A stretch of DNA of 32,000 bases from NCBI RefSeq assembly GCF_000237865.1, contig NC_017457.1, positions 30,001 through 62,000 of the forward strand, read 5' to 3'. Under the pieces are notes generated by a model. It saw nothing but the letters and a program-made list of their open reading frames with translations. It had not been told where the DNA came from and made no database searches. The translations under genes were made by a program, and so were the position numbers. This DNA is from Haloquadratum walsbyi C23. Its GTDB lineage: Archaea > Halobacteriota > Halobacteria > Halobacteriales > Haloferacaceae. Shown here piece by piece: positions 2,477-21,001 of this stretch; the stretch's first letter is position 1; every line of letters starts with the position of its first letter.

Positions 2477-2499
2477 CACCCCCCGTGTGCGATATGAAA
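2477..2499 (+). promoter_or_regulatory. ORB-like box 2
   Basis: Exact copy of caccccccgtgtgcgatatgaaa. Confidence 0.75.
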
Positions 2500-2559
2500 T
2501 TAATGAGATGACTCATATAGTAACTGTCACTGCCAACCAGAGGAGTTCATTAAAATCAT

Positions 2560-2582
2560 CACCCCCCGTGTGCGATATGAAA
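2560..2582 (+). promoter_or_regulatory. ORB-like box 3
   Basis: Exact copy of caccccccgtgtgcgatatgaaa. Confidence 0.75.
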
Positions 2583-2900
2583 ACCCGATCTTATTATACA
2601 CTCTCTGTTTGTTGATTATTGCATCATAAACTGGATCACAATCAGTGATATAAGATAGAATCTTTCCGATATGCCTAGATAATTCGAATGGAACACTACA
2701 TACTCGAGTCAGCTAACTCAGACGCTGAGTTGAACTGATGCTTGGCTTGTGATGTAGACCCAGCGAGAGTAATAAAATGTATTACTCACTAAGAGTTTTC
2801 AAAATAAAATTAGAATATCAGGAATTTTTTGATGTGGGTATTAGTAAGAATACTTCTCGGTAATCCTGAATAAAGTTAGAGCTTCACCGCAAGTTACCCC

Positions 2901-2923
2901 CACCCCCCGTGTGCGATATGAAA
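2901..2923 (+). promoter_or_regulatory. ORB-like box 4
   Basis: Exact copy of caccccccgtgtgcgatatgaaa. Confidence 0.75.
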
Positions 2924-3295
2924 TAGGAAGAGACAGACAGGGGGTATGCAAGCGAAGCAGTCGTGAAGTAACCAAAGATGGTGTTTCTATAGAGACGAGG
3001 CACTAAAACGACATATTGACGACTACAATTAGGAAAGATTTAAATAATAATCTTATGAATAGAATCCGTAGTAGAGTAAGATAGTAAAGACGAGACAAAC
3101 TTGTGACATAGTGCGCTCAGCGACTTTTCATCTTGCTCCCACGTGAGTTGATTGATTCCACTGATCCAATTGTGATGAGGGCGAGTGCTTCAGGGCTCGT
3201 GTACATCGACGGGATATCCTGCGTCTCACGACTCATCTCCTCTGCATGGACTTCGAGTTTGCCTCGTGATCTGCCCCACCCTACTATCCCGTTGA

Positions 3296-3318
3296 TTTCA
3301 TATCGCACACGGGGGGTG
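3296..3318 (-). promoter_or_regulatory. ORB-like box 5 (inverted orientation)
   Basis: The plus strand reads tttcatatcgcacacggggggtg, the exact reverse complement of the box. With box 4 it forms an inverted pair about 370 bp apart. Confidence 0.75.
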
Positions 3319-3728
3319 AGGGTTCATCCTCAAGTAAAATGAGTCGGTAATTAATATTTCTCTAAACTATCTTCATTATGACCCGAATCCTTTCGTGTGG
3401 ATCCAGCTAAAAATACTGCCGACTAACAAACGGTCTTGAAAAGGATTGGATACTCAAAAATTCAGACACACACTCCTCATTTCCTGAGAGTCAGAACAAG
3501 AAACTGCAATTGCTGGGGCAGAAATATATGAATAAACATTCAAGAATATCTGTTCAGCTCTTGTTCTTATTTATCTGGCTACTGTCTGCAGACCATGTTA
3601 TTACGCTTTCTCATGTTTGTAGAGTTAGCTAGGACCAGCGTGAGAGAATTCGGAAACATACATGCCCTCTGTCGATATGATGCCTGAAGAAGTAACTTGA
3701 TTAGACATGTCATTCTCACTTCAATTAG

Positions 3729-3777
3729 ACCTTATGTAATAAATCGTCTCTTATCTCCTCTAGTTGTTACATAAGGT
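3729..3777. repeat. hairpin/inverted repeat accttatgtaa-N27-ttacataaggt (family member 1)
   Basis: Perfect 11-bp arms with a 27-nt spacer. The same arm sequence recurs at 10056, 13623 and 20058. Confidence 0.8.
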
Positions 3778-3794
3778 TGATCTAGAATTATATT

Positions 3795-4245
3795 TGAGCA
3801 GCAACAGTAAGACCATCTTATAACCGAGCGATTTCCATCAACTATTGAGAGCGTCAGCCAATTTCATTATCTCATCTATGTTCGATACATTGCTGTGATG
3901 ACAGAATATATTTATACTCTCGTTATGAGATATATATATTCATGTGTACCAAACTAGTGAACCCATACTAACACTGTTGTTAGTGCCCAAATTGGTATTG
4001 GTGTTAGTGAGCATCAAAAAAGACGCAATTACACCCTCTCAACGAAAGTAAAGTTGTGTAGGAGCAAAGTATAATTGTATTAATAAGTTTGGTTAGATGA
4101 TACTATACCTTTTCTAACGCTATTTTTACTTACTTTCTTACATACATGCCCAATTCGCCACTAACAACACTGTTAGTGGCAGTACACTATTATATAATTG
4201 AGTTAATAAGGTAGAATCGTGTATTTAAGAATCTCTGCATATCCA
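3795..4245 (+). repeat. ~450-bp non-coding repeat, copy 1, with a palindrome-bounded ~210-bp core
   Basis: Aligns with 10141-10600 in the same orientation and 14335-14640 inverted. The core is bounded by palindromes actaaca-ctgt-tgttagt (3967-3984) and ccactaaca-acac-tgttagtgg (4158-4179). No ORF. Confidence 0.9.
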
Positions 4246-5138
4246 TGAGGACAATTCAGTGGGATGTGATCATATGTGAATGTATCATATGTGCTTGACC
4301 GGTTAGCATCTATCAGTGATTATTCTCCATTGAGAACCGGATATCACAGGTAATTCTTTGATTAATCATTCATACACTGACAAGCAGATAATGTCCAGCA
4401 GAACAAACATGTGAAAATCTGATAACTCGGTAGATTGAGAATCATAGTATTGAGTAATAAAATGATTATCTGACATCGTTCCATCTTCTCGGCTCAAACG
4501 CATGATTCTATACTTAAAATGAAAAATCACAAGCTCCCAATCAGATGGTTTCGTTTGCCCAATCGTCGATCTGAACAACTGGTCGAACAGTTACATTTTT
4601 ACATTTCGTGATGAGTTTTTACACTGATTTCATTCGGATATTGAAAGGTATTTCAAGGAATTTACTGACATCTCTGCACGAGCCGAGTCTGACTGTTTCT
4701 GAGAAACTCTGATGTAATAATATGCTCGCCTATTATCAATTTATTGATGTTAATGTGTTAAAGCTTAAATCTATTATAATTCGGTGCTCAACCCCACAAG
4801 TAATCAGTAATTGTGTATTAATGACTATCATCGCACGTCTACATTCAAATTTAGGATTTGCGGAGTACTTACGCAGCTCAGATATATATAGTATACTATG
4901 ATTGGACGTACTAATAATTAATACTATACGGTCATATCCAAATATTTGATATAATATGTGACTGATTGGTTTGAGTATGCTCACTCATATTAAAATCTTC
5001 ATATTAATCTAATGAGATATCATAATTGGTCGTAATATATTCTATGATTACCTTAAATACTTGATATGTTTTATTTACGTGTTAATTGATACATGAATTA
5101 ATGGAATTGTATATAAATTAGTATAAGTTACTGTACAT

Positions 5139-5696
5139 ATGAGCTATTGTTCAGGCTGTGGAACAGAGCTTAGTGGAGAAGAAACATTCTGCCCAGACTG
5201 TGGGGAGTCGATTGATAAAAATAATACTGTAGAGACTAATCTAAGTGAATCAGCAGACACCAATCCAGCAAAAATAGCTGATACGTCTGAGAGTGAGGAT
5301 GACGGAGTTCAATGGAAACAGGTTGGAATGGCTGGAAGTCTTGCATTAATCCCTGCGTTCATTGCATACTTAGCGCTTTCAATTGCAACTGGAGGAGATC
5401 CTGTTGGTATCGTGTTCTTAATTTCACTCCCTGTATTTGGATATCTCCTTTACCAGCGATCGACATTCATTACAATGATTGGCGGGATGTGTTACTATCT
5501 CTCGATTGAGTTTCTCCTCAGCCCATTCTTTCTACTACTCTATACTGTCGCATTCGCAAGTGATAGCACTACCACTGCAGCTGGACAAGCGGGAGCTGCT
5601 ATTGGTGGGTTTGCACTAACGATTGCTGCATTCGTTGTTGGATTGCCACTAGCAATTGCATTTTATCTTGTTTCACGGCGATTAGATCAGACATAG
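5139..5696 (+). CDS. zinc-ribbon membrane protein (about 4 TM)
   Basis: N-terminal CxxC-N11-CxxC (CSGCGTELSGEETFCPDCG), then an acidic linker and four hydrophobic helices. Confidence 0.8.
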   Translation: MSYCSGCGTELSGEETFCPDCGESIDKNNTVETNLSESADTNPAKIADTSESEDDGVQWKQVGMAGSLALIPAFIAYLALSIATGGDPVGIVFLISLPVFGYLLYQRSTFITMIGGMCYYLSIEFLLSPFFLLLYTVAFASDSTTTAAGQAGAAIGGFALTIAAFVVGLPLAIAFYLVSRRLDQT

Positions 5697-5725
5697 TATG
5701 AGTAAATCCATTAAATATAAATAGT

Positions 5726-6610
5726 ATGAGTTTTTGCACGAACTGCGGAACAGAACTCAGTGGAGGGGAGTCGTTCTGTCCAAATTGTGGAGAGTCTGTT
5801 CACTTAGATACTGATAGGGATGGTCTGCGAAACTCAACCGACGATAATCCAGCAGATGCTGGTGCTAAATCAACCAACGTAATTAAAAATAGTAGTATAG
5901 CAGAGGATCAGAAAGATAAGATAAGAGACATAAATCTCACTTTAGGTAAATCAATTGCATATCCTGTCGGATCATTATTAACTTTTTTAGGAGTTATCTC
6001 GTTATTTTCGGACATTGGCGCAGGTATACTAATCCTATTTGCAGGCATCATCGCACTTCCAATCATGCGGTCAAGAATCAAAGATAGAGTGGGTATAGAA
6101 ATAAATAGATGGGTTGCGTCAGCTATCGTAATCATATCAGTAGGGGCAGGAGTAGCAGTTTTACCATCGGAGACTGGCGGAGATAGCAGATCAGCTGTGC
6201 AAAATAATGAGAGTGAAATAAAAACAATTGAGCAACCGGCGAGCGAATTGACACCAACCATTGATAGCTTCGAAAGCGGATGGCGTGTTGTTGAGAGGCA
6301 GGGTGGAACTGCTGATTTTGTTTCCCCAGAGGCAAGCGAACGAGTGGTATACCAAGTCATGGTGTATAGGAACGTCAGCGAAGCACAATCGGCAGTGGTA
6401 TCTGAAGAGCCCGATAATATAGCCACAGATAACCCAGATTTTGGCGATGGAGGTTTCAAATATCAAATTGCTGATAGGGAATATAAGATAGTATTCTATA
6501 AAAAAAATGTCGTATGTAGCACAACATACGGAGCTGATGTCATGACATTCAACGCTGAGTCGAACGCAGACAAATTCGCCAAGATTTGCTTAGACTCAAT
6601 TGAAAGCTGA
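5726..6610 (+). CDS. zinc-ribbon membrane protein paralogue (about 3 TM plus C-terminal soluble domain)
   Basis: The N-terminus MSFCTNCGTELSGGESFCPNCGES is nearly identical to that of the upstream gene. It is followed by three hydrophobic helices and a 140-aa acidic C-terminal domain. Confidence 0.8.
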   Translation: MSFCTNCGTELSGGESFCPNCGESVHLDTDRDGLRNSTDDNPADAGAKSTNVIKNSSIAEDQKDKIRDINLTLGKSIAYPVGSLLTFLGVISLFSDIGAGILILFAGIIALPIMRSRIKDRVGIEINRWVASAIVIISVGAGVAVLPSETGGDSRSAVQNNESEIKTIEQPASELTPTIDSFESGWRVVERQGGTADFVSPEASERVVYQVMVYRNVSEAQSAVVSEEPDNIATDNPDFGDGGFKYQIADREYKIVFYKKNVVCSTTYGADVMTFNAESNADKFAKICLDSIES

Positions 6611-6811
6611 CACTGTCTAATAGATAGCCTTACTATTTCAAGTAATCCTCGATCTCACTACGCTACGTTGGATCAGTGCGTTCCTTCGTTGAATTATTTT
6701 TAGTAGTATATATTTGCGTGTCTCAATAACCGGTAACGCACCCGTTGGAGCGAGATCTTCGATAGAGTACAGCTAACAGTCTGCGGTATGTGATTGTCGT
6801 CTTCTTTCTGT

Positions 6812-6998
6812 AACACTGGCAATGAGGGGGTGTGGGGAGTATATAAAGAAAAGAACACTGGCAATGGGGGTGTGGGGGGAGTATATAAAGAAAAGAACAC
6901 TGGCAATGGGGGTGTGGGGGGAGTATATAAAGAAAAGAACACTGGCAATGGGGGTGTGGGGGGAGTATATAAAGAAAAGAACACTGGCAATGGAGGTG
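6812..6998. repeat. 42-bp tandem repeat, 4 full units plus a partial fifth
   Basis: Unit is aacactggcaatgggggtgtggggggagtatataaagaaaag, starting at 6812, 6854, 6896, 6938 and 6980. Units 2-4 are identical. Confidence 0.95.
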
Positions 6999-7194
6999 CA
7001 TGTTAGATATTATCACTTATATAAAGTCGATAATTGATGAGAAACTATTAGACAATTGAAATACAGACAACTAACACTTTTCGAACCATTCACAACGAGG
7101 GATCTGAATGAAAAAATATAGTTCAACGCATGATGCTGAATTCCGAAACCCTAAGATATTATTCGAAGGAAACATTAGAGCCGACTATATTATT

Positions 7195-7332
7195 GAGGTA
7201 ATATTCCGTAAGGAGATACTCAGAAGTGGATGCTCTGCATCATACCCGGCAGTACTGAGTAAATCATTGATTGGGAAGGTTCGTAGAGTCAAAAATGTAG
7301 AATACCCCACCCCCCGTGTGCGATATGAAATC
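7195..7332 (+). repeat. 140-bp composite repeat, copy B, ending in an ORB box
   Basis: Aligns with 821-962 and has no adjacent orc gene. Confidence 0.85.
7308..7330 (+). promoter_or_regulatory. ORB-like box 6 (orphan, no adjacent initiator gene)
   Basis: Exact copy of caccccccgtgtgcgatatgaaa. Confidence 0.7.
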
Positions 7333-7382
7333 AAGATGAGAACAAAGTGTAGTCATAGAAATGGTAACCAATAATGTTATAC

Positions 7383-8348
7383 TCAATATCCAACCGAATC
7401 AAGGAGAGCCTCAACCGTTGCCTCGTCACTCGAGTGCCCATGTTCAATCCTGTACTGTCTGAAGCGCTCCCGAGTTGCAGTACTCAGTGTAATACTCTCA
7501 CTATCGGGACCGGAAACAACACGAGTTTTACCCTCACTCTCAGTTTTCGGTCCGTCGGGATTACTGGGACTGAGTTGACACTGTTTGAGCTCGCTGCTCG
7601 ATTGATCAAAAACCTCACTGGACCAGTACCATGCACCCTGGTTGAATTTAATATTTGAGACGTCTGCCATCGAACACGCTGAGACAAGATGGTGAGCCCA
7701 CTCATCACGATTATTGATCGGATCTGCACCTATACCCGACCATACTGCCTGAATAATAGCAGCGACTTGCCCATCGATCGGATGGATATATGCTAATTCG
7801 TCTTCACGTAGATCAGATTCTCTGTCGAGAGCCCAGACCGCCTGTCGAAGAGTAAGTCGAGCAATTTTCATTCCGACACCGTACATGTCCCGAAGTCGTT
7901 TTTCGACCTTATTGAGTGTTCCAGCCTTGATATGGCTGTCAATCCATGCATAGAAGTTCCTTTGTCCTTGTTCCCGCTCGTTGAGTATCTCGGGAAGATC
8001 AATGACTGGACCTTTCGTCATATCGTTTATATCGTATTCATATTCCTCTTTACAGATCTGACAGAATTGACTCCACATCTCGTCTGGTGGGATTTTGGAA
8101 CCCGTTTTTGATGCAACAATGTCCAGTGCCTGTCGAGCCGCTTCACTGTACATGCCTCCTCCTTGACGTGCGAACATGGTGGTATTGTAGGCAAGATCAA
8201 GTGATTCTGCTGGCGAAAGTGTCAATATTTCGTCCCGCATAATATTCAATTCATTGTAAGGCTGCATCCGATATTCTTGCTGGAATACTGGGGCATACTC
8301 AGAAAGCGTCTGAATGACCGCTTTCTGCTCTGAATCAATGCTCTGCAT
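7383..8348 (-). CDS. hypothetical protein with helix-hairpin-helix (GVGxK) motif, possibly HhH-GPD-like
   Basis: 321 aa. Segment RLRDMYGVGMKIARLTLRQAVW followed by IHPIDGQV resembles the HhH motif plus downstream Asp of the EndoIII/HhH-GPD superfamily. The acidic Ser-rich tail has an RHH-like end. The functional call is tentative. Confidence 0.7.
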   Translation of the reverse strand: MQSIDSEQKAVIQTLSEYAPVFQQEYRMQPYNELNIMRDEILTLSPAESLDLAYNTTMFARQGGGMYSEAARQALDIVASKTGSKIPPDEMWSQFCQICKEEYEYDINDMTKGPVIDLPEILNEREQGQRNFYAWIDSHIKAGTLNKVEKRLRDMYGVGMKIARLTLRQAVWALDRESDLREDELAYIHPIDGQVAAIIQAVWSGIGADPINNRDEWAHHLVSACSMADVSNIKFNQGAWYWSSEVFDQSSSELKQCQLSPSNPDGPKTESEGKTRVVSGPDSESITLSTATRERFRQYRIEHGHSSDEATVEALLDSVGY

Positions 8349-9180: not shown

Positions 9181-9512
9181 CGACGTCCACTCCTTGATTC
9201 TGATTTCGCTGATACTCTTGGCTCGTCTTCCCTCACTTCCTCCGCCAGCTCTGCGGATCGTCCGATTAGGTCTCTAGGGAGTGGACGACCCTCTTCAAGT
9301 AAGTCCCGATACATGTCGAGCCATTCATTCATCATAGATTGTACTTGGTCTCTGGACTGTTCCTGAAGATCATCGTCGTCAATATTTTTTAACACGTTCT
9401 CAGCAGGATTCGTCCGAAGAACTACGTCAAGAGCCATATCGATATTCCGCTGGATTAGTTGATTCCTATCGAATGAATCTTTCAGTTCCTCTCGAGGTGG
9501 TCGGTTGCTCAT
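9177..9512 (-). CDS. acidic hypothetical protein (111 aa from the internal ATG; the ORF extends to 9626)
   Basis: The ATG at 9512 forms an ATGA overlap with the stop of the 9509-9796 ORF. I prefer this coupled start over the longer out-of-frame overlap. Confidence 0.55.
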   Translation of the reverse strand: MSNRPPREELKDSFDRNQLIQRNIDMALDVVLRTNPAENVLKNIDDDDLQEQSRDQVQSMMNEWLDMYRDLLEEGRPLPRDLIGRSAELAEEVREDEPRVSAKSESRSGRR

Positions 9513-9796
9513 CGGAGAGTCTCCTTGACCTGCTGATCCAGATCGTTCAGGTGTTGCTTGATCTTTCGATTCCGCTCGTTCCTCTGCCGGGATATCTTTG
9601 TCCTGTGGGTTTCCATTTGGTTCCATTTTTGACCCTCTATTGCTGTCGAATCCACACTTGGTTGATCATCATTCTTAGCTACTCGTGCGACCATTGAAAC
9701 TAGCTCATTTTTTTCATGTGATCGAAGATGCGGGTGAATTCCGCTTGGTTTGAATTCTTCGCTACATATGGGACAATTTGGCATACGTGCAAGCAT
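9509..9796 (-). CDS. small C2H2-type zinc-finger protein
   Basis: The CPICSEEFKPSGIHPHLRSH motif is CxxC...HxxxxH. The C-terminal half is basic. A TATA-like ttataata lies about 22-30 nt upstream. Alternative start at 9784. Confidence 0.65.
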   Translation of the reverse strand: MLARMPNCPICSEEFKPSGIHPHLRSHEKNELVSMVARVAKNDDQPSVDSTAIEGQKWNQMETHRTKISRQRNERNRKIKQHLNDLDQQVKETLR

Positions 9797-10055
9797 TCTG
9801 TCATCTTAAAAGCATCATATTATAATTTTCGGTGATTTAACAGACTCATATCAGTCAGCCTCTAGTAATCGAGTATCTCATACAATAGAAGGTAACATGA
9901 CCTCACAGTCATGATTGCTTTGCGAATTCTTCCAATGGAGCCAGTATGAGGATATTACTGGCATGATCACTAACATCATCTACGTTCTCGAAAGAGCCGA
10001 CTCATTCCACAATAGAAGTAATAATATTACTGATTGCTGCTCGCATCGTTGCTGG

Positions 10056-10101
10056 CTTATGTAATGAATTGCTTATATTTTGTCTCATCGTTACATGAAG
10101 C
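10056..10101. repeat. hairpin family member 2 (cttatgtaa-N26-ttacatgaag)
   Basis: Same arms as 3729-3777, with one extra base in the right arm. It occupies the same position upstream of repeat copy 2. Confidence 0.7.
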
Positions 10102-10140
10102 TAATTGAGAGTTATTGGTGTGAATTAAAGAACTAAGCTT

Positions 10141-10600
10141 TGAGTAACAACAGCAATATCGTCTTGTAACCAAGCGTCTATTCAGCGAGTAATTTCCATC
10201 AGCTGTTGAGATTGTCAGTCAACTGTATTATCTTATCTCTATTCGATACATTGCTGTGGTGACAGAATATATTTATACTCTCTTTGCAAGATATACATAT
10301 TCACATGTACCAAACTAGTGATCCCATACTAACACTGTTGTTAGTGGACAAATAGATGTCTCTGTTAGTGAACACCGAAAAAGACGCAATTACACCCTCT
10401 CAACGAAAGTAAAGTTGTATAGGAGTAAAGTATAATTGTATTAATAAGTTTGGTTAGATCATAGTATACCTTTTCTAACGTTATTTTTACTTACTCTCTT
10501 ACATACATACCCAATTCGCCACTAACAACACTGTTAGTGGTAGTACATCATTTTATAATTGAGTTAATAAGGTAGAATTGTGTATCTAGACACCTCTGTA
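10141..10600 (+). repeat. ~450-bp non-coding repeat, copy 2
   Basis: Collinear with 3795-4245. Palindromes at 10328-10345 and 10519-10540. Confidence 0.9.
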
Positions 10601-10612
10601 TATCGATGAATA

Positions 10613-10631
10613 CTCCTCGTGTGCGATATGA
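10613..10631 (+). promoter_or_regulatory. degenerate ORB-like box (ctcctcgtgtgcgatatga)
   Basis: Keeps gtgtgcgatatga, but the C-string is interrupted. Lies 47 bp upstream of the 10678 CDS. Confidence 0.4.
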
Positions 10632-10677
10632 GTTATTTAGGAGAATTGACTTATAGCTGATAAGATATTACTAAATT

Positions 10678-11745
10678 ATGATATTAAGTATAGAAAAAAG
10701 TGGAAAACTAGATGATAGTCTTGAGACGACAAAGCTCTCTGATCTGAATTTTACTGAACCGGAGAATCTTCAGGAGTGGATAATTGAGAGACCAGCTATC
10801 TTAGGTGAGGAACTACTTGTAATCACATCAGAGTATGCTGGATTCCAAGATACACTTGATAGGTTAGATATCCTCGCTATTGATACAGATGGAAAATTAG
10901 TTGTCGTTGAACTCAAACGGGACCGTGCTGATCAAACAACCGACCTCCAAGCAATCAAATACGCAAGCTACTGCGCCACTTTAACTGCAAAAGAAGTGCA
11001 GAAAGAATATCGCTCGTTTTGGACTGGACGAGATGGTGCAGAGATTGCGTCTGAGATCGAAACCGAAGATGTCAGTCAACAGTTCGCAGATTTCTTAACT
11101 GAGTTCGAGGGAGACCCGCCTATTACCGATGAAGGGTGGGTCGACTTTGAGCTTAGTGAGAGACCACGTATCATACTCGCCGCTGGGAGCTTTAGCACTG
11201 AAATTACGTCTCCAGTATTATGGTTGACCAACGAATATGGAATGGACGTTACTTGTATAAAAATCGAGGCTTATGAGCATCAGGAGCATGTGATTCTAAA
11301 CTCTCAACAGATTATTCCTATTCCTGAAGCTGAGGAGTATATGACCAGACGTCGTGAAAAGCGGGAGAAACAGCGAGAGTCCTCATCAGTCCGGACAATT
11401 GAACTACTTCTTAGAGAAAATGTGCTCTCTAAAGGTGATGAGGTCTACTTTAATTCTGACAAGGCACCGTCTGACCCCGACCCCGAGTGGTCTAGTTCCG
11501 ATGAATTTTGGCGAGCAGAAATTACTGGGGAACGAGGTCAAAGTAACAATGTGAAGTGGCGTGGGAAAGAATACTCATTCACCGGACTCACGAAGGAAGT
11601 GTTGTACCAATCAAATGACCGAGACAAAACTAACTCACTCAACGGCTACAAGTACTGGAAGTCTCCCGATTCTGATAACCGAACGCTAAGACAGCTCCGT
11701 GATCGTGAGGTAGGTGGTTCGGATCTAGGCGATCAAGATGAATAA
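10678..11745 (+). CDS. NucS/DUF91-like PD-(D/E)xK nuclease with C-terminal RAMA-like domain
   Basis: RLDILAIDTDGKLVVVELKRDRADQTTDLQAIKY matches the D...ExK...Q..Y core of NucS-type nucleases. The C-terminus FWRAEITGERGQSNNVKWRGKEYSFTGLTKEV...LNGYKYWK...LRQLRD resembles the RAMA domain found in restriction and methylase-associated proteins. Confidence 0.8.
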   Translation: MILSIEKSGKLDDSLETTKLSDLNFTEPENLQEWIIERPAILGEELLVITSEYAGFQDTLDRLDILAIDTDGKLVVVELKRDRADQTTDLQAIKYASYCATLTAKEVQKEYRSFWTGRDGAEIASEIETEDVSQQFADFLTEFEGDPPITDEGWVDFELSERPRIILAAGSFSTEITSPVLWLTNEYGMDVTCIKIEAYEHQEHVILNSQQIIPIPEAEEYMTRRREKREKQRESSSVRTIELLLRENVLSKGDEVYFNSDKAPSDPDPEWSSSDEFWRAEITGERGQSNNVKWRGKEYSFTGLTKEVLYQSNDRDKTNSLNGYKYWKSPDSDNRTLRQLRDREVGGSDLGDQDE

Positions 11746-12522: not shown

Positions 12523-12861
12523 ATGACGCAAATAGATAATCAAGGAACTCTCAGTGAAACATTTTTTCAGGATTTGACACAACGGCAGGAGGCTTTGTTT
12601 GGTGTGCTAGCAGATTCCGGTGAATGGGTCCTTGGACCAGAACTTCGTAAGCGAATGAGAGATAGACACAATGTTCCGATGGATGAGAGTGGACAAGCTC
12701 TTGCTGGAGTTATCTCTGGTATCACTCAAAAATACAGTGAGAGTGAGAGAGACGCCCTGCTACAGAGAAGATGGGCAGAAACAGATGTTGAATTTCGTAT
12801 CGGAGAGTATCGAATTCAGGAGGCACACAGAGATCAGATCCGTGACCGTCTCAGTAAGTAG
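12523..12861 (+). CDS. hypothetical protein, paralogue of 11898-12356
   Basis: LTQRQEALFGVLADSGEWVLGPELRKRM...ALAGVISGITQKYSESE follows the same pattern as the upstream ORF. Confidence 0.6.
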   Translation: MTQIDNQGTLSETFFQDLTQRQEALFGVLADSGEWVLGPELRKRMRDRHNVPMDESGQALAGVISGITQKYSESERDALLQRRWAETDVEFRIGEYRIQEAHRDQIRDRLSK

Positions 12862-13622
12862 AGTAGCATTGACTGTGGATTTGAGTATTTACCAGAACAC
12901 ACGCTCAAAGAAACCGTCGATCAAGATATGGTCAAATTTAGATCGTTATTCCATTCGGGCAGATACTTTTCACCGATAACATGACTTCAGAGAAGTAGCC
13001 CGTCAGGAGTTTAATTTAGACTTCGCAGCTAGAGGTTGGGACTCTTATATAAATATATTCTCACAATCCTATCTAACTATTATATAAGGCTAATTGAGAG
13101 ACATCAGTGAGTTGAATAGAGGAGTAGTAATTGTTGAACAGTTATATCGGCTCAAGGACGCATAGATTGCAGATATATTCTCGATGCTGATACTATACGT
13201 GCAGGAGCAATATTGCTACTCACATTAATCTAGAACCGTTCTTGATTCAATATGCTTTCTGCTGGTTCCCAAGACACACTGGACATGATACTGATAGGCA
13301 TGAACTATGAGATAGTTTCTATCAACTAAGACTCCATCTTTCGTGAGAATAACCCATCTATGTACTACGCCGTGAGGTGCGTCTGGTTTCGATTAGCAGT
13401 ATGTGCTGAGAAATAAAGAACAAATAAAAATTACCGTGTGTATCCAAACAAATCTATACCTGACAACTTTCTCAATGTTTCCTGACAGTGATACCATCCC
13501 CATAATGACAGTATTAATTCTACCTGCTAGATTATCTGCGATTACAGCCACAGTGTGCTTGTCAATGTATCCTGCTGGGTCGATAGGAGACTTTACTGGA
13601 GCAATTCATGCTCACGTCAATA

Positions 13623-13675
13623 GAGCCTTATGTAATTAATTGCCCCGTATGTTATTCATATGTTACATAAGGCTC
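13623..13675. repeat. hairpin family member 3 (gagccttatgtaa-N27-ttacataaggctc), solo
   Basis: Perfect 13-bp arms. The outer arm bases differ from member 1 but stay complementary. Confidence 0.8.
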
Positions 13676-14334
13676 AACAGAAAATAACTCGCTGACTGGT
13701 CAGCACTCATATCGGGAGAGATAGTCCAAAAATTGCGTATATTAAAAAGGTGAATGTGTGATCCGATAGGATCCAAGTCGTTGACTCGAAGCTAATCAAT
13801 GATATGGATATATCTGGATCAGATGAGCAGCGTGTCATGTCTGAGATACACGATCTACCGCTTTGTGTTTCAACAAACCAATTCGGATCCAGGAGAGTCT
13901 CCATAGATATGTTAGTGCTAAATGACACTGAGCGGACACAAGAATAATTAATTGAGCACCTCTCGACAGTTGGATGTAAATTCGAAGTGCCGCCAGATCA
14001 AAAATAAATTACACTAATAGGATCAGGAGCCGATTGGAGTGACTGATCGTTAACATTCAGTAAGTGTTTATGAGATATAATAAGAGAATAGATGAAATCA
14101 ATTATTCTCTTCGTATGCTCGAAGGGGAGAATCTTATCGGACCATCCAGTCAAGATGCAACCACAACTTGAAAAACGGACAAATTTATTGCGGAAGTGAA
14201 TACTAAAATTGATTAGATTGAGAACATGCTCATTGAATGTAAATTGGAGAGTTAGTGAACAGTAAATACCAGTAACAAAGGTTGAGACTAGCTTTACTGA
14301 CCGATGAGTGCTCCGTACGTGGGAAACTTAACTC

Positions 14335-14640
14335 GATTATAGAATAAGGTAGTCCCACTAACACTGTTGTTAGTGGCGAATTAGGTGTGTATGTAAGAAA
14401 GTAAGTAAATATAACGTTAGAAAAGGTAGTCTATGATCTAACTGAACTATACTAATACAACTACACTTTACTTCTACACAACTTTACTTTCGTTGAGAGG
14501 GTGTAATTGCGTCTTTTTCGATGCTCACTAACACCAATACCAATTTGGGCACTAACAACAGTGTTAGTGCGAGTTACTAGTTCAGTAAATGTAACTATAT
14601 CTATCTTACTTACAAAGTATAAATATTTTCCGTCGATATG
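14335..14640 (-). repeat. ~300-bp non-coding repeat, copy 3 (inverted)
   Basis: Reverse complement of the copy 1 core and its flanks. Palindromes at 14355-14376 and 14549-14570. A partial hairpin half (ttacataaag) lies at about 14719-14728. Confidence 0.9.
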
Positions 14641-15064
14641 ATGAAGATTTTCAACTATACATGTCGTTCCTAATCTGCTGAAGTTTGTTTAATGAGTTGT
14701 ATCTATTTCGTCTAATTATTACATAAAGTATAATTAGCTTTCATGTTCCAAATAGGAGAATGATTCCGAACCCGAGTGTAAATATCGGTATTGGGATTTG
14801 AGACGAGTGCAGCTGTTCATGATTTGAGCAATTGAGGGCGTGATCATGGTCACGACGAGGATACTGTTGTATCACGAAAGGAACAGTCCGGCATGAGTTG
14901 AGATCTTTTCAGCAATCAACATGCCCTCGGGAAACTACTCCTGTTGCTCAGAGAGATGAGTTCCTGTTTCAAAATCAAATTAAACAACTACTGAACTTAG
15001 ATCATATTCTCTGTCCTGATCGATTCCATGTGCTGAGAAATTCATTAGAATTACCAGAAAATAA

Positions 15065-15598
15065 TCATTCATACTCGTTGATATATTCCTCGACATTGAT
15101 GTCAAACTCTGCTTCAAGACTCCGCCGCAGTCCATAGATATACGGACGCACATGATGATACATGTTCTGCTGGAGTTGGTCTATTTCATTACTTTCATCG
15201 CTTTTTATTATGTTCTCTTGACCACGACCACGGTCATCAGCGTCTGTGTTCATCTTTGCATTGGTGATAGCATTGAGTCGGCTCGTTAATTGATCGAGTT
15301 GTTCTTCGATGTGAGTAAATCTGGATTCAACGTCTGGGTGAATCGGCTCTGGAATTTCACCATCGATATCTATGTCTTCGCCTTTGGGAGTCAGCACTGC
15401 TTTGTTGACTCTTTTGCCACCACGTGTCTGTTGAGATTTCTCTACATCTATTAGATTGAGTTTAGAAAGTTTTGAATATCGATATGTGATGTCATTGTTA
15501 CTCAATCCGGTGATATATCTGATCTGTGTAGTCGTTGCCTCGCCGTATCGCTTGATTGCTTCCAGCATCTTCTTCGATTTGTGATCTAAATGTTTCAT
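15065..15598 (-). CDS. winged-helix DNA-binding protein with C-terminal coiled-coil region
   Basis: LEAIKRYGEATTTQIRYITGLSNNDITYRYSKLSKLNLIDV...GGKRVNKAVLTPKG is a MarR/ArsR-like wHTH pattern. It is followed by a helical acidic tail. Confidence 0.7.
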   Translation of the reverse strand: MKHLDHKSKKMLEAIKRYGEATTTQIRYITGLSNNDITYRYSKLSKLNLIDVEKSQQTRGGKRVNKAVLTPKGEDIDIDGEIPEPIHPDVESRFTHIEEQLDQLTSRLNAITNAKMNTDADDRGRGQENIIKSDESNEIDQLQQNMYHHVRPYIYGLRRSLEAEFDINVEEYINEYE

Positions 15599-15987
15599 AA
15601 CTAATACTTCGAACGCATTTCCTATTGCTTTTCTTATTGTGAGTGACTCAGGAGATAATTTTTAAGACCAGATTTAGAAAGATTCAGTTTTGTTGTCCGA
15701 CTACCGACGGAAAAACAGTAGTTTCCGTCCTCTTTTGACTACTAGCGAGCCCCGTAATATCTGTCTGCACTTCACAACCTCATAGCACATAGATATCAAC
15801 CAAAATAATCATCGTAACAAAAGATATCTCTGTGATATGTTTAATTCATCTTCCACAAGAACAGCATAATACTCCTCTAGTAAATTCTATCTTAACTTCA
15901 ACGCAGCTATATGAAGACCTGATGAGTAACCTACCATCATAACTTGTGGTGTGTACATTGCCATCAAATGAGAATCACTCTTGACTA

Positions 15988-16242
15988 TCACTGCTCCCAA
16001 TGAAGAAGATACAGAAGATAGACACTTGCACCAACAATAGTAGCACCAACCACAATCAAAACTAAGCTGGCTAAATCACTTATATGAAAAGCGAGTTGAA
16101 CTGTCTGAAGACCAACAAGAATGGTAAATACCGCTATTATCGTCCAAAATACAGTTGAGATAATTGATACCCCTGCTTCATGCACCCCTTCCCTTACAGC
16201 ACGACGAATATCAGGCTCAGTGAGGTCATCAGACTCACTCAT
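15988..16242 (-). CDS. small membrane protein (2 TM)
   Basis: Acidic N-terminus, then two hydrophobic helices (VSIISTVFWTIIAVFTILVGL and LASLVLIVVGATIVGASVYLLYLL). Confidence 0.6.
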   Translation of the reverse strand: MSESDDLTEPDIRRAVREGVHEAGVSIISTVFWTIIAVFTILVGLQTVQLAFHISDLASLVLIVVGATIVGASVYLLYLLHWEQ

Positions 16243-16396
16243 GAATTATTCTGATGTATGAATTCTCCCCGCCTGTAATTAAAATGAATGATCATCGTCT
16301 GGCGTAGAATATCCTCTACGATACTCCCACAATTCAAAATAGTTTTCAATACAAAGTGTCGATAATTATATATAAGATAAATTATACTATACTAGT

Positions 16397-16651
16397 ATGA
16401 CGACTGATCCAGATGAATATAGTCTCGATCCACATGATCTTGCCCCAGAATCAATCGCTAAACGTGTGCTAGAAAATAACGACTACAGGTGCGCATTCAA
16501 CCAGGTAAAGATACATCCAGAAGATGCGATGGTTGTCTATCGAACTCCAGCAATCCGACGTGATGAAGACGAGTATTCAGTCGAGCAACTACAGAAAATG
16601 TCTGATGAGGAATTGGATGAAATATTTTATGTAATTCTTGGAGGGGCTTAA
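16397..16651 (+). CDS. small acidic hypothetical protein (84 aa)
   Basis: ATG start, D/E-rich. An AT-rich promoter-like region lies immediately upstream. Confidence 0.55.
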   Translation: MTTDPDEYSLDPHDLAPESIAKRVLENNDYRCAFNQVKIHPEDAMVVYRTPAIRRDEDEYSVEQLQKMSDEELDEIFYVILGGA

Positions 16652-17197
16652 TCACTCCCTCTCAATTATTTTCCTTATTTCTCATAAAACTTAGAATCTA
16701 GAGGTATGCGTGATCCAACTCACACAGAGCTAATATAAGATCAAATCCTGAATTTCTCTAGGAAATCTGATTCAACGACGAAGCTCCTTGGTTCAATTAA
16801 GATACTTAATGAGTGTATATCACGAAATTTTCTTTTTCCGAATGAGTGTTCCTCTCGAAAATATTTGTCTAACATAATAGATCTCAGGCAACTTTTTTAT
16901 TAACATCGTTATTAAAAAACGATGGCAAATTACATCCAGCTGACAATTATTATTAAATTTGGATAGCACCCAAGATAGTGCAATCAAATAACTCAAGCAG
17001 GTAAGCAGGTAAGCAGCTGCACGAGGGCTGAATATAAGTAGAGCAATAATAAGCAATTCAACACAAGACAGATCAAAAGTATATGATGATTAAGCTTTGA
17101 TTTATGCAGTAACCACTCAAATAATAAATTGTGAAGCGTAATCGTATGACAGTTGGATACCAACTGACCACAGGAATCAGAAAAATAATGGAATAAT

Positions 17198-17350
17198 ACG
17201 ACTGTTGAATACGAACCAACTGAAGAGACTGAGAAAATACTACAAAAAATAGACGAAGGATGGACTGAAGAAAGAAGTGAGATTATTACAGACATATTAG
17301 AGTATTTTCATTTAAATTATACTGAATGGAAAAACGCAGATAGACGTTGA
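17198..17350 (+). pseudogene. start-less acidic coding remnant (...EGWTEERSEIITDILEYFHLNYTEWKNADRR*)
   Basis: Open frame with no start codon. It shares the motif ITDxxEYxxxY with a second remnant at 18023-18163. Confidence 0.3.
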
Positions 17351-17606
17351 GAATTATTCCATTTTATCTTTGATGACGATCGTGATAATGAGTGAGAACC
17401 TTACAAAAGTTGTTGAGATATTCCAAACTAGATAATTAGTTGAGAGGCTAAAATTAGCAAATTTTTATTAGAGCCATACCAATCCACATCGTTACAACTT
17501 TTTCAGCTAGTCTGATCTGAGAGCCCATATTCGTAAAAAGAGAACAAGAAAGGAAGAATATAATTAGTGAGAGGCTTACGAAAGTCTTGAAAGTATAAGA
17601 TCGAAT

Positions 17607-18010
17607 AATATTTTTTTTCGTCTCTATATACACAGAGGGTGTGAGTGTTCCCTCCAGATTTCTAAAACATTAAAAACAGACGTCTCAGCCAATTTTAAAA
17701 ATTTACATATTGAAAATATTACTTCCTACTACTACTACTACTACTACTATACTACTAATTATATACTAAACTACTTACTACTACTAAATAAGTTGTTACG
17801 TTTGTGATCTAATATGTAAGGTCAAAATATGGCTGCAGATTCTCAGTGAAATAATTCGTTTTTCAGTCTAAATTATTAGTTTTGCATGAATCCCTTTATC
17901 TGTATTCTGTGCGACTCTCATATGGTAGTACCGTAAGAATCTTATAATTTAGTAAGCTCTCAGTTCAGAGAGTTATACCCTCCCCACATATAGAGACGTA
18001 AAAAAATATT
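17607..18010. mobile_element. MITE-like ~400-bp element with ~35-bp terminal inverted repeats
   Basis: The left end is aatattttttttcgtctctatatacacagagggtg (17607-17641). The reverse complement of the right end (17976-18010) is aatatttttttacgtctctatatgtggggagggta. There is no ORF inside. Confidence 0.5.
17727..17747. repeat. (TAC)7 microsatellite with degenerate TAC-rich extension to about 17790
   Basis: Direct reading gives tac x7, then tatactactaatt...ctacttactactactaaat. Confidence 0.9.
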
Positions 18011-18022
18011 TTGAACAGTTGA

Positions 18023-18163
18023 AATCTTCACCTGAGATTAGAGCAAAATATTACTGATGCATTCGAATACGAAATACGATATTCTAACTTTATTATATCA
18101 TCCAACACAGAAACTGCTCAAATTGTTGAGCGATATTATTCTGACATGCTTGAATTAGAGTGA
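18023..18163 (+). pseudogene. start-less coding remnant (...EQNITDAFEYEIRYSNFIISSNTETAQIVERYYSDMLELE*)
   Basis: Open frame with no start codon. Related to the 17198-17350 remnant. Confidence 0.3.
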
Positions 18164-18392
18164 TACTTTTCTAAAACTTACAATCGAATCAAATTCAATT
18201 GCTATTGTATGCATAAAAATAACCTGAAATTCATAGAATTTAAATTCAATAGCGAATTTATTGTTATAACAAAGAAGCGAGTAAACCCGGAAATTAAGCT
18301 CCGAATATGTGAATTTGGGAGTGTGATTTAATTTGCAGAATATTGTGGATTAGTTCTTACTAAATAACTATTTTATACAAAATGCCGATATA

Positions 18393-19547
18393 TTGATGGG
18401 GGATGTATGCGTTTTCGTAATTGTTATGACAGTATCACAACGGGCAACAGTGTATCGTAATGAGTCTTCAGAAAGGTTTACAGCTACGTTAAGCTCTGGA
18501 GAGGTCGCATATATTACTAATAGAGCAAATAAGGCACATACTAAGGGTTTAGTTGTTTATGAAGTGCTTCATTTGGCACATTCGTATCTTTCAGACCGTT
18601 TAACCTTTGTTGAGGATCATATATATAAAACTCTTGCAGATGTTATCGGAGTCACTCAGTCTGATGATGTTCGCAAAAAAAATATTTTCAATGAAGAAGC
18701 TGATCCAATAAAGCAGTTGAAATATGAAGCTGACTCTGCAGATTACAGTGATTATTCTGAGATGAAGAAAACGGTGATATATCTTCCTGTAAGTACCATT
18801 GAAACACTGAAGGAAGAAAATGGACCGAGAGGCGTATCTCAAGCGATTTCTGAGGCAATTCATCAGGTTATCCGGATGCCATACAATACGAGATTTAACA
18901 AGCTCACAGTTATTGATCAATTCATCAAAATAAACAATGGAGATAAGGATAATATTGAGGAACTGCATCCTTTTGTTGAGTTGTTAATTGATGGAGATGA
19001 TGAAGAGTATAATATCAGACTATCTGATCGTATTAATTCTGACAGAGAAAGAGAGGATCAACTCTTAAGAGAAGATCTTAAACGAAGGGGGCTTAATTTA
19101 GACAGTCAGACGCCATGGGTTGGATTAAAACCAGATATGACATTCAATTTGAATGTACTTCGGCGTATAATTAGACTTGGTGTACTAAAGCAAAAGAAAG
19201 ATGTGAGAGTTAGAGCCTTGAAAAGAGCGATAGAGGGTTCTCAAAAGTTGAGGGAAGATTGTGGTCAAAATACCCAGCTCTATGTATATAAACGTGATTT
19301 TTATGATCACATTGAGGAAATTTTTGACTGCTCTAGACCAACCGCAAAAAGTTATGGCGATGCAGTTTTTCAGTCATTTAGAAGTGTCTTAGGCGTGTAC
19401 GATGATGGTAAGCTTGAAAGATTAATTGTTAAGCCATATAATTCAAGATCAAAATTTACACGAACGGGAATGGGTCAACCTTACGCATGTCTCAATAAGA
19501 AAAACTCAAATTATTCAATAGAGTATAAGCATAAATTCCTTGAGTGA
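18393..19547 (+). CDS. hypothetical protein with two RHH-like segments (384 aa; likely start a few codons downstream)
   Basis: Long ORF in a very AT-rich island. It is K/N/I-rich and much less acidic than its neighbours. FTATLSSGEVAYITNRA...VVYEVLHLA and KKTVIYLPVSTIETLKEE...VSQAISEAIHQVI fit a beta-helix-helix pattern. Confidence 0.7.
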   Translation: MMGDVCVFVIVMTVSQRATVYRNESSERFTATLSSGEVAYITNRANKAHTKGLVVYEVLHLAHSYLSDRLTFVEDHIYKTLADVIGVTQSDDVRKKNIFNEEADPIKQLKYEADSADYSDYSEMKKTVIYLPVSTIETLKEENGPRGVSQAISEAIHQVIRMPYNTRFNKLTVIDQFIKINNGDKDNIEELHPFVELLIDGDDEEYNIRLSDRINSDREREDQLLREDLKRRGLNLDSQTPWVGLKPDMTFNLNVLRRIIRLGVLKQKKDVRVRALKRAIEGSQKLREDCGQNTQLYVYKRDFYDHIEEIFDCSRPTAKSYGDAVFQSFRSVLGVYDDGKLERLIVKPYNSRSKFTRTGMGQPYACLNKKNSNYSIEYKHKFLE

Positions 19548-20057
19548 ATGCACTCGATAAGGATCATCGATGAACATCGATAGTGTATGAATTTGCTAAA
19601 TTTTTGTGTTGAAAATTATAATTTAAAACATGCATATATGTTTAATCTCGAAGTTCTTACACGGTTTTAGATGTTTTACGGTCTTGTCACAACATATATA
19701 CATAGATATTTCCCTTCTTTATTGAGGTATTGAGTCTGTGAGTCGTTTCTGGTGCTTGCACTCACTGTCCCCGTGAGAGACCGGAAGAGGTGAGCAAAAA
19801 ATTGGACGACTGATAGATATTATATCCGCAATTTATTTTAATGTGACATTAGGAACCCCGTGCGAATTGATCATGATACCTGTAATATCTTCAGAATTGA
19901 ATCCAGCAGTATCGTGGAATTCACCATACACAGCCAATTCGTATACCGTCTATATATTCATTCCTGACATCTTTTTGCACTCGACGATGCATTCTGATGC
20001 ATATCGTCACGACAAGATCAGCACAACACAGCTAAGTCGTTGTACTAGCATATCTGA

Positions 20058-20101
20058 CCTTATGTAATATCTATTTGGGTCAAGGGCAATTGTTACATAA
20101 G
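20058..20101. repeat. hairpin family member 4 (ccttatgtaa-N25-ttacataag), solo
   Basis: Same arm sequence as the other members, with arms of 9 bp. Confidence 0.7.
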
Positions 20102-20175
20102 AAATGGATATCAGAAGCGAAGAATTCACTCGAACGTCCTAAATCACTTGAATTGAGCAATGGAGGTGATTGCGC

Positions 20176-20364
20176 TCAAATTAGCCGTAGAGCGTGTGCC
20201 AGTCGATAGAAATTTAACGCGTATCCCCATCCAAAGACCATTGGAGTGAGTAGTCGCTCATCTTCTGGGTTCCAGAATCTTTTCTTCACTTTTGACAGCG
20301 TCGGCTTTCTCAAGTCGTATGGGAGTCCGAGGAATCGACCTTGCAGGGGTTCATTCTGTTCCAT
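20176..20364 (-). CDS. small protein resembling the DUF5808 motif family
   Basis: GLPYDLRKPTLSKVKKRFWNPEDERLLTPMVFGWGYALNF resembles the conserved P-Y-D-x-R-x-P-T...W-N-P-x-D...F-G-x-G-W pattern as I recall it for DUF5808. This comes from memory, not from a search. Confidence 0.5.
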   Translation of the reverse strand: MEQNEPLQGRFLGLPYDLRKPTLSKVKKRFWNPEDERLLTPMVFGWGYALNFYRLAHALRLI

Positions 20365-20510
20365 ATTGATCTCACTCTGTGAGCAGATTGAAAAGAGTCA
20401 TTCTGGACTTCTGAGTATGAATCGACTATGTATAAGATAGTAATACCTCTGAAAGATCACATGTGCTTAATGATGCCCATGAGGTAGTTATGAGCGATAT
20501 CTGGTTGATG

Positions 20511-21001
20511 CTAATCGACTTCACAAGCCTCAGTTCGAAAGTCAAATAGAGCATTCCGAGTCTTGCAGACACTCTCGAGAAGGCTATATATCATGTCACT
20601 TTCTTCTAGAACGCATTCTAGGAATTGCTCAATATTTTCATCATAAACGTCTGATATTCACTACATGAACATTCATGAACTGTTTTAGGAGGAACATATC
20701 TCTCGTCATTCTTAGCTCACCCTGCAAGTGTTCCCGATATTTGCTGATCCAAATCATGAGAGCAGTTGGAAAATAAATACCGAATCGCCTCTTCAATCCC
20801 TCCAATTTTGAGAAATGGCTCAACTTGGTATTTAATGAAATATACAGGATGTCATGCCGTGTAAGAATAGCATATGACTCAGCTGAGTCACTGGTCAAAG
20901 TCACTATTCAGCATCACACTCACTGCGTGTTGGATTGAGTCATCCAACTGAACTGTAACAGGCTCATCAGACCTCTCAACTGTGCTATATGGAGAGAACA
21001 T
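20511..21001 (-). pseudogene. multiply frameshifted remnant of an acidic protein gene
   Basis: Consecutive protein-like minus-strand segments sit in different frames: MFSPYSTVERSDEPVTVQLDD..., VYFIKYQVEPFLKIGGIEEAIRYLFSN..., AKNDERYVPPKTVHE..., DVYDENIEQFLECVLEESDMIYSLLESVCKTRNALFDFRTEACEVD*. Confidence 0.4.

Follow-up and report, generated by a model that had tools for sequence, protein, structure and literature searches.

The PeSL-type promoter/stem-loop elements of T4-type phages, described as 'mobile regulatory cassettes' (PMC2839356, PMC4122927), and the motif of a TATA box plus inverted repeat that precedes many open reading frames (ORFs) of the haloarchaeal virus HGTV-1 (PMC3950731) may be regarded as the closest functional analogues of the element described here, a non-coding repeat present in three copies (A, B and C) on the plasmid PL100 of Haloquadratum walsbyi C23. 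The repeat was studied in a stretch of 32,000 nt of the 100,258-bp plasmid (NC_017457.1, positions 30,001 to 62,000), referred to as the window, to which our coordinates and the count of copies on PL100 refer. Like its analogues, the cassette is an intergenic promoter-like element with inverted repeats; the genes around it, on a mobile replicon, are unrelated to one another, and breakpoints between variants of that replicon coincide with it. It differs from them in being far larger (a 272-bp core in a unit of ~410 bp), in its three copies, in two identical palindromes whose centres are 193 bp apart and in its long conserved body, and the likeness proposed is one of components and setting. The cassette may mediate shuffling.

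Within H. walsbyi, the genome paper (PMC3119063) describes PATEs. Their near-terminal palindromes are rich in GC and related to the ends of IS605-type elements, their 3' ends carry a conserved TTCAC or GATGTCAA, a target of 4–5 nt lies at the 5' end, and the copies, tens to hundreds of them, are dispersed, with insertions that differ between strains. The cassette resembles these elements (HqIRS44/46/54/56/71/81, derivatives of IS200/IS605 (IS1341-type) elements) in host species, in being non-coding, in its length of a few hundred base pairs and in the palindromes near its ends. SMR-B HqIRS40 (296–297 bp, ITR 18/29, no target duplication, C23 only; Table S8 of PMC3119063) is comparable, by description only, in size, in an inverted repeat of ~18 matching bases and in its presence in C23 but not in HBSQ001.

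PL100 itself has a low copy number, is easily lost and has two origins linked to cdc6 genes, according to the same paper (PMC3119063). Nine of 10 window proteins match sequences of the protein collection exactly, mostly under C23 accessions that include CCC41906 (Cdc6/Orc1, Hqrw_5030), CCC41909, CCC41911, CCC41919 and CCC41931. The passages of the genome paper at hand do not mention the cassette, and its supplementary tables contain neither CACTAACA nor TGTTAGTG (PMC3119063). The three-copy cassette is real and apparently undescribed so far. Its most probable role, a prediction, is that of a small-RNA gene or a regulatory site rather than a transposon relic.

Three copies and a 272-bp core

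By self-BLAST, copy A (3825–4248) and copy B (10186–10609) are 87.7% identical over 424 nt (E = 1e-151), and copy C (14328–14634) is 85.8% identical to A (4206–3900, E = 9e-96) and 83.8% identical to B (E = 3e-89). The segment common to the three copies spans 3900–4206 (+), 10261–10567 (+) and 14328–14634 (−); in the alignment of A and B the similarity extends to the left, more weakly, to ~3795/10141. Both the high identity (84–88%) and the leftward extension agree with a preliminary description of this DNA. The left end of copy A was set at ~3835 (ATTTCCATCA) from the Lake Tyrrell scaffold L012, where the upstream 'U' module (CCTTATGTAA-N27-TTACATAAGG plus ~60 nt) occurs without a cassette after it.

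Relatives were collected by protein-anchored look-ups and by exact-pattern scans with a 21-mer from a 36-nt conserved block, a twin-palindrome pattern and two right-arm patterns. They lie on the PL100-like metagenome contigs L001–L003, L007/L013, L008, L012, L014 and L037, the metagenome pattern scans returning three PL100-like contigs. The sole relative outside PL100-type DNA is on L022, a chromosome scaffold of the metagenome-assembled genome H. walsbyi J07HQW2. Two different patterns found no cassette in any other of 185,579 species representatives (the genome match L023 is a chance one, in an unrelated Acidobacteriota repeat), and the viral contigs gave no match to the cassette patterns. 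The phage and PLSDB plasmid collections, compared with the element by BLASTN, were also without a match; PLSDB is largely bacterial, and its part of this result says little. A profile built from nine distinct cores detected no further or relic copy in the window or in the loci collected by then. The family has a narrow distribution, confined to one species complex.

The boundaries of the core, 3936/3937 to 4207, are identical in all comparisons (with L003, L012 and L022). The conserved unit is thus wider than the ~210 bp proposed at first and reaches ~30 nt beyond each of two palindromes of the form ACTAACA-N4-TGTTAGT. Matches to this form with up to two mismatches number six in the window, two per copy as had been claimed and none elsewhere, with 0.13 expected by chance. 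They are not two same-strand hairpins: each is the reverse complement of the other, loop included, and they stand at the head of inverted-repeat arms of 55–61 nt that match at 71–73%. The palindromes are set in from the two ends of the core by 31 nt and 28 nt, and the arms make the arrangement resemble terminal inverted repeats. The inner half-site TGTTAGTGA, also noted earlier, is present in each window copy and ends a degenerate 24-nt tandem copy (3986–4009) of the palindrome-1 unit (3962–3985). The 36-nt block had been called invariant. It is so in the three window copies, but outside the window it carries substitutions and a 16-nt deletion in J07HQW2 and single changes in three metagenome copies (L001a, L002 and L003). 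The features are listed in Table 1.

Table 1. Coordinates of the cassette copies, their parts and neighbouring features in the window
Feature	Position	Strand	Basis or remark
Copy A, whole cassette (upstream promoter region, core, short tail common with B)	3835..4248	+	A/B self-BLAST
Copy B, whole cassette	10196..10609	+	TATA 10272-10277, core 10297-10568, palindromes 10328-10345, 10519-10540
Copy C	14328..14634	-	TATA 14623-14618, core 14598-14327, palindromes 14568-14551, 14374-14357
TTTATA, TATA-box-like hexamer	3911..3916	+	-31..-26 from A3942
Copy A conserved core	3936..4207	+	nhmmer 305 bits; predicted transcript start ~3942
Palindrome 1, ACTAACA-CTGT-TGTTAGT	3967..3984	.	pattern search
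Palindrome 2, CCACTAACA-ACAC-TGTTAGTGG	4158..4179	.	reverse complement of palindrome 1
ACTAACA-N4-TGTTAGT matches	3967-3984, 4160-4177; 10328-10345, 10521-10538; 14357-14374, 14551-14568		copies A; B; C
Extra half-site TGTTAGTGA	4002..4010, 10363-10371, 14525-14533	+ in A	same letters in three window copies
36-nt block GACGCAATTACACCCTCTCAACGAAAGTAAAGTTGT	4022..4057 (A), 10383-10418 (B), 14478-14513 (C)	+ in A	identical in three window copies
T6 run (T5 in B, C)	4016..4021	-	A6 on plus strand; candidate antisense terminator
Inner inverted repeat GGTTAGA-N15-TCTAACG	4091..4119	+	with T4 run (4110-4113)
T5 run, interrupted in C	4123..4127	+	candidate terminator or T-rich box
ATTATA	4193..4198	-	15 nt outside palindrome 2, all three window copies; candidate antisense TATA box
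177-aa wHTH protein gene (CCC41919)	15065..15598	-	just upstream of copy C; weak Pfam HTH_20, DUF2513 matches; candidate binding partner
ORB-like boxes	942-961, 2481-2500, 2564-2583, 2905-2924 (+), 3295-3314 (-), 7312-7331 (+), 10615-10634 (+, 3 mismatches)

Promoter-like geometry and a predicted small RNA

All three window copies carry TTTATA at −31 to −26 from a conserved CA (3941–3942 in A). Two PL100 genes have the same hexamer at comparable distances from the ATG, orc1 at −28 to −23 and the gene of a 321-aa protein at −32 to −27, and the 9-mer ATTTATACT is common to the upstream region of the cassette and the orc1 promoter. Two types of upstream sequence occur, type I (...GACAGAATATATTTATACT...) in copies A, B and C, and type II (...CAGATAAATATATACAGT...) in L003, L012, L001b and L022. 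On reading, the two are distantly alike and both contain a TCAGCAGAT-like motif; type II has the TATA-like ATATATAC at a distance from the core start similar to that of type I. Strong conservation starts abruptly at 3936/3937 in every comparison, even with the distantly related upstream type. Since a canonical promoter would start transcription in the region of 3942, strong conservation begins at the predicted transcript start.

We tentatively predict, at somewhat short of an even chance, that each copy is an autonomous, lineage-specific, non-coding cassette consisting of a promoter and a small RNA, with palindromes that may double as operators. The loosely conserved stretch of ~100 bp upstream of the core would carry the canonical haloarchaeal TATA box, transcription would start 26–31 nt downstream of it, and the product would be a small RNA of ~185–250 nt lacking a conserved ORF. 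Palindrome 1 would fold into a hairpin close to the 5' end, and palindrome 2 into a 3' hairpin with a U-rich stretch after it; the two palindromes of 18–20 nt may instead pair with each other and clamp the ends of the RNA. On the DNA, the palindromes and the GTTAG/CTAAC pentamers probably also serve a dimeric plasmid protein as operators, a candidate partner being the winged helix-turn-helix (wHTH) protein encoded nearby. The copies may have spread and stayed similar through duplication and recombination between plasmid variants rather than transposition, and would mark the breakpoints of mosaicism. The prediction draws support from the point at which conservation starts, a TATA spacing like that of real PL100 promoters, the lack of a conserved ORF and the differing downstream genes. 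Folding at z = −3.6, G–U changes on the plus strand, a compensatory loop pair, invariant stems, pentamer enrichment and the proximity of the wHTH gene also support it. The preliminary description had offered as its alternative a conserved gene for a non-coding RNA, or else a regulatory cassette to which a dimeric protein binds, and this alternative is what the evidence favours.

The genes that follow the cassette differ by copy. Copy B precedes a NucS-like DUF91 nuclease (PADLOC PDC-S11), the J07HQW2 copy precedes an unrelated 86-aa ORF, and long ORF-poor stretches lie downstream of copies A and C. We rejected the cassette as leader of the NucS-like gene, since homologues at 68–69% have unrelated upstream DNA without the cassette; that gene has, on reading, its own TATA-like CTTATAG ~20–27 nt before the ATG. 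A linkage to the 184-aa 'gene X', which precedes the type II copies, was also rejected, homologues at 71–75% having no cassette nearby.

No ORF in the core is conserved. A hydrophobic 35-aa ORF on the plus strand starts at the predicted transcript start (GTG 3944 in A, encoding MYQTSEPILTLLLVPKLVLVLVSIKKDAITPSQRK; ATG 10305 in B), and is intact in two of the nine distinct copies (A and L002). Premature stops interrupt it in B, L013B, L001a and L012B, the stop is lost in L003, and C, L003, L012B and L022 lack a start codon. On the minus strand, an ORF of 19–25 aa is open in all copies, with non-conservative substitutions. A start codon at the predicted transcript start would suit the leaderless mRNA of a type I toxin-antitoxin-like locus, in which a convergent antisense RNA from ATTATA overlaps the 3' part of the message for the hydrophobic peptide and the pair stabilises the plasmid. 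The TATA-like boxes at both ends face inwards and the T5/T6 runs are symmetric, as such a locus would have them. Its architecture of a few intergenic copies of 300–500 bp, each with its own (here predicted) promoter, possible convergent transcription and a plasmid setting, recalls the LDR and QUAD/Sib repeats of Escherichia coli and convergent type I loci; to our knowledge, no LDR/QUAD-type or convergent type I antisense locus has been established in archaea. The cassette has no homology to these loci and its small ORF, unlike theirs, is not conserved, being disrupted differently from copy to copy. The substitutions between A and B are non-conservative, and the hydrophobicity results directly from the TGTTAGTG repeats. 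Even with the easy loss of PL100 in culture (PMC3119063), we regard a toxin-antitoxin locus as very improbable. It is improbable, in our view, that the cassette is a module of convergent sense and antisense RNAs, with a promoter at each end (TTTATA at the left, ATTATA at the right) and symmetric T-run terminators, that serves in plasmid maintenance or addiction or regulates defence genes, or else that its twin palindromes are the crossover sites of an archaeal plasmid inverton.

Structure and covariation analysis, proposed earlier as a check on the element, gave a mixed answer. Shuffled sequence folds less well than the core on either strand (z = −3.6 on the plus strand, −3.5 on the minus strand), in line with the dyad symmetry of the core. 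The nine distinct copies, with a mean column identity of 93%, hold one compensatory change, a pair linking the loops of the two palindromes that goes from C:G to A:U in J07HQW2, but this was equalled or exceeded in 48 of 500 shuffles. Two changes at stem ends are G–U-compatible on the plus strand only. With nine copies and stems that never vary, the family is too shallow for the RNA structure to be decided. Rfam has no match in the whole window at the gathering threshold, and at E ≤ 10 the region 3700–4400 gave four chance-level matches that all fell far short of their gathering scores. The window holds no tRNA genes, and no complementarity of at least 13 nt to the core, of the kind expected of trans-targets, is found elsewhere in it.

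Several points weigh against the prediction of a promoter with a small RNA. Transcription of the cassette is itself predicted. The TATA-like boxes of type II and of J07HQW2 are weaker, and such hexamers are common in DNA of ~36% GC. Covariation is not significant, the position of the compensatory pair is a C.C mismatch in four copies, and changes in the left arm of copy B are unmatched in the right arm. The nine-copy comparison supports no helix outside the palindromes, the folding scores of the two strands are alike, and a clean intrinsic terminator was not found. Finally, invariant stems without compensatory change fit recognition of the DNA by a protein at least as well as pairing in an RNA.

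Palindromes as candidate binding or recombination sites

This last point is central to a reading in which the cassette is purely a protein-binding array. A dimeric or oligomeric plasmid protein, for example the wHTH protein, would assemble on the twin palindromes and the GTTAG half-sites between them into a looped nucleoprotein complex. The array would then act as an operator common to the promoters nearby, or in the manner of a centromere or partition site, and a transcript, if there were one, would be incidental. All 28 stem positions are invariant in the nine copies and the flanks vary, as would be expected of binding sites. GTTAG/CTAAC pentamers, to which the inner inverted repeat contributes, number seven per 272-bp core against 1.15 per kb outside the cores (~22-fold enrichment). 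The dyad symmetry continues ~40 nt inwards from each palindrome, where 21–22 of the 40 inner positions of the arms match (a level reached by 6–16 of 5000 shuffles), and the opposite strand of the element scores 40 bits against its own family profile. The centre of the core, however, is asymmetric and the ~30 nt on either side outside the palindromes are weakly symmetric, so that a binding array leaves the conservation of the whole 272 bp unexplained, as it does the start of that conservation at a promoter-defined point. The ParB-like gene of the window lies 14 kb off and resembles a candidate defence pair, PDC-M19, rather than a partition operon. We hold the array to be possible, if unlikely.

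The wHTH gene bears both on this array and on the operator role of the palindromes in the promoter and small-RNA cassette. It adjoins copy C, and a homologue (35% identical, tblastn E = 5e-14; L022 ~7470–8000, +) lies 1.9 kb from the J07HQW2 copy. An exhaustive phmmer search found 77 representatives of the family among 1.84 billion proteins, the best non-self match scoring 57.7 bits. The family is so rare that its co-occurrence with the cassette in both independent contexts is unlikely to be due to chance. The gene arrangement around the wHTH gene differs between PL100 and J07HQW2, and at 35% the two proteins are far less alike than their cassettes (82–90% identical). The L012 plasmid variant carries copies B and C but lacks a homologue of the wHTH gene over 18.6 kb, which counts against the array.

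Mutually inverted palindromes would also suit site-specific recombination, with recombinase dimers binding 7-bp arms around an asymmetric 4-bp spacer and flipping the segment between them, as at hix, lox or fimS. The segment of ~175 bp is of a size typical of invertons. Like invertible promoter switches and hix or lox sites, it is flanked by internally palindromic inverted repeats of ~20 bp, here perfect over 18–20 bp with an asymmetric centre, and the spacers co-vary (CTGT/ACAG in most copies, ATGT/ACAT in J07HQW2), which would be expected if crossover regions must match. The spacers do not match, however, in A, B, L002 and L013B. About 16 full-length copies, from the window and related loci, are all colinear with the profile, and no flipped variant was seen among them. 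No recombinase gene was found in the window; among the ORFs read next to the J07HQW2 copy there are only tyrosine-recombinase-like fragments, 1.2 kb away. The strong, canonical TATA box lies outside the segment. We regard an invertible switch as very improbable.

Mobility, mosaicism and the surrounding DNA

The preliminary description favoured an IS200/IS605-type element or a PATE, possibly with a guide-RNA-like transcript, a reading that the comparison does not bear out. More generally, we consider it distinctly unlikely that a transposase encoded elsewhere mobilises the cassette in trans as a non-autonomous element (a PATE, SMR or foldback MITE), with the palindromes as its recognition sites. 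PATEs and SMRs number in the hundreds in H. walsbyi, SMR-B HqIRS40 included (PMC3119063), and the ~400-bp unit is ~90% identical between L012 and the J07HQW2 chromosome, with similarity dropping sharply on both sides. Between the two upstream types, however, the upstream part fades gradually and has no fixed terminus. The palindromes are subterminal, as in a mobile element, but they are AT-rich and unlike every tabulated Haloquadratum PATE or IS605 palindrome (all GC-rich; PMC3119063), and being mutually inverted, at the head of 60-nt inverted arms, they do not fit the single-strand logic of IS200/IS605 elements. At the true ends of the unit there is no terminal inverted repeat. The right ends read ...GAGTTAAT, ...AAGGTAAT or ...TAGTTAAT, and there is neither a TTCAC or GATGTCAA 3' end nor a 5' target of TCTAA or TTAC type; the left flanks differ between contexts and have no tetra- or pentamer in common. 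By eye, no direct repeat flanks the core or the 410-bp unit, and no target duplication is seen at the core ends.

The numbers and distribution of the copies point the same way. With three copies inside an 11-kb part of PL100 and a single one in J07HQW2, there is no dispersed multi-copy pattern, in contrast to the tens to hundreds of copies of PATEs. The copies differ by 12–16%, whereas SMR types are >95% identical, and PL100 is completely free of SMRs according to the genome paper (PMC3119063), which argues against identity with HqIRS40. None of the tabulated elements is a parent transposon with these ends, and no transposase or recombinase domain was detected in any scanned ORF of the window, as the preliminary description had stated for transposases. 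The count of copies and search for empty sites that it recommended added one genome copy beyond the window and those on metagenome contigs, but no empty site was found in ~40 related loci. Four further protein look-ups led to filled sites or to contigs broken inside the repeat. The break points, 3996 and 4149 (~30 nt from the last copy-specific bases), probably reflect assembler k-mers of ~31 nt and are no evidence of transcript ends or inversion.

A further point raised by the mobile reading is that plasmid variants are mosaics whose breakpoints are often at or near the cassette, which the promoter and small-RNA reading would ascribe to recombination between variants. In L012 the homology to copy B begins at the core start (10294). 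In alignments inspected by reading, parts of copy B of L012 and L001 are closer to A and C than to copy B of the window, which suggests sequence exchange between copies.

Other differences between the plasmid variants were observed. Two large genes of L012, of 1476 aa and 1285 aa (2959–7389 and 12664–16521) and without recorded Pfam matches, replace window segments ~9220–10290 and 14960–20244, amounting to large cassette replacements. L012 and L001 hold 237 nt more than the window at 14102/14103. An indel of ~150 nt is bounded by the direct repeat ATCATATGTG (window 4264–4293; L002 380–523; L032 1–160); in the window two copies of the repeat are adjacent (TRF period 15), which fits the repeat-bounded indels reported for H. 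walsbyi. Decayed gene remnants lie downstream of copy C (13800–14070 and 14064–14171; also L003 308–859 and L001 840–960), namely a fragment 69–70% identical in DNA to gene X of the Lake Tyrrell contigs and a frameshifted small HTH-like ORF.

The inverted repeat of the 'U' module, CCTTATGTAA-N27-TTACATAAGG, occurs at 3730–3776, 13626–13672 and, degenerate, ~10055–10097 in the window and at 1434–1480 in L012, and may be the terminator of preceding small genes. It is followed by the conserved module of ~60 nt (...GAGCAACAACAG...AACCGAGCG), which lies upstream of copies A and B.

Boxes like the origin recognition box (ORB), CACCCCCCGTGTGCGATATGAAAT, number seven in the window with 0.01 expected (Table 1). 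The inverted set flanking 2930–3290, beside the orc1/cdc6 gene (988–2334, −), is OriP1 as described for PL100 (PMC3119063). A replication origin in the cassette was rejected: the ORB-like boxes are elsewhere (2481–3314, the known OriP1), and the one degenerate box after copy B has no inverted partner. This box lies ~45 nt upstream of the NucS-like gene, and its Lake Tyrrell variant (CCCCGTGTGCGATATGAG in L001/L012) is closer to the consensus. A second non-coding repeat module of ~150 bp, 84–88% identical, ends in an ORB box (813–961 and 7187–7331; L012 112–256). Both window copies of this module follow directly on the 3' end of a minus-strand gene, orc1 for the one and the gene of the 321-aa protein for the other, and lie ~3.0 kb upstream of cassette copies A and B, respectively, giving two 3.4-kb stretches with the same module order. 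Between this module and genes of Zn-ribbon membrane proteins is a 42-nt tandem repeat (6812–6998, 4.5 copies, 97%; AACACTGGCAATGGGGGTGTGGGGGGAGTATATAAAGAAAAG) with ORB-like G-strings and a TATA-like ATATAAA. Arrays were also sought under the idea of a CRISPR leader or array, which was dropped as no repeat arrays were found.

The window is low in coding density in places: 16650–18390 and 19550–21100 are ORF-poor, within several kilobases of low GC (33–37%) that contain no ORF of at least 140 aa, and a run of ~21 CTA trinucleotides lies at 17726–17786. It is rich in defence-type genes (10678–11745, 21107–21703, 22895–25066, 28169–30359 and 30871–31608), which comprise the NucS-like DUF91 nuclease (PDC-S11), an Mrr-type endonuclease, a GmrSD-N/C and AlbA_2 fusion (HEC-05-like), a ParB_N-HTH-DUF488 protein with a 268-aa neighbour (candidate pair PDC-M19A/B) and an N6/N4 methyltransferase.

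The narrow distribution of the family would limit the wider impact of these results unless the sense/antisense or the switch reading were true; a sense/antisense module would be the first archaeal counterpart of the antisense-controlled plasmid loci of bacteria (type I toxin-antitoxin/par class). PL100 is an unstable, defence-gene-rich megaplasmid of an organism that is among the most abundant in salt-saturated brines, and knowledge of the regulation and maintenance of haloarchaeal plasmids of this kind is very scant. A conserved non-coding cassette with its own predicted promoter would provide an entry point, through a plasmid-specific small RNA, a set of operators for a rare wHTH protein, or both, and may help to explain the mosaic rearrangements between plasmid variants of Lake Tyrrell and other brines.

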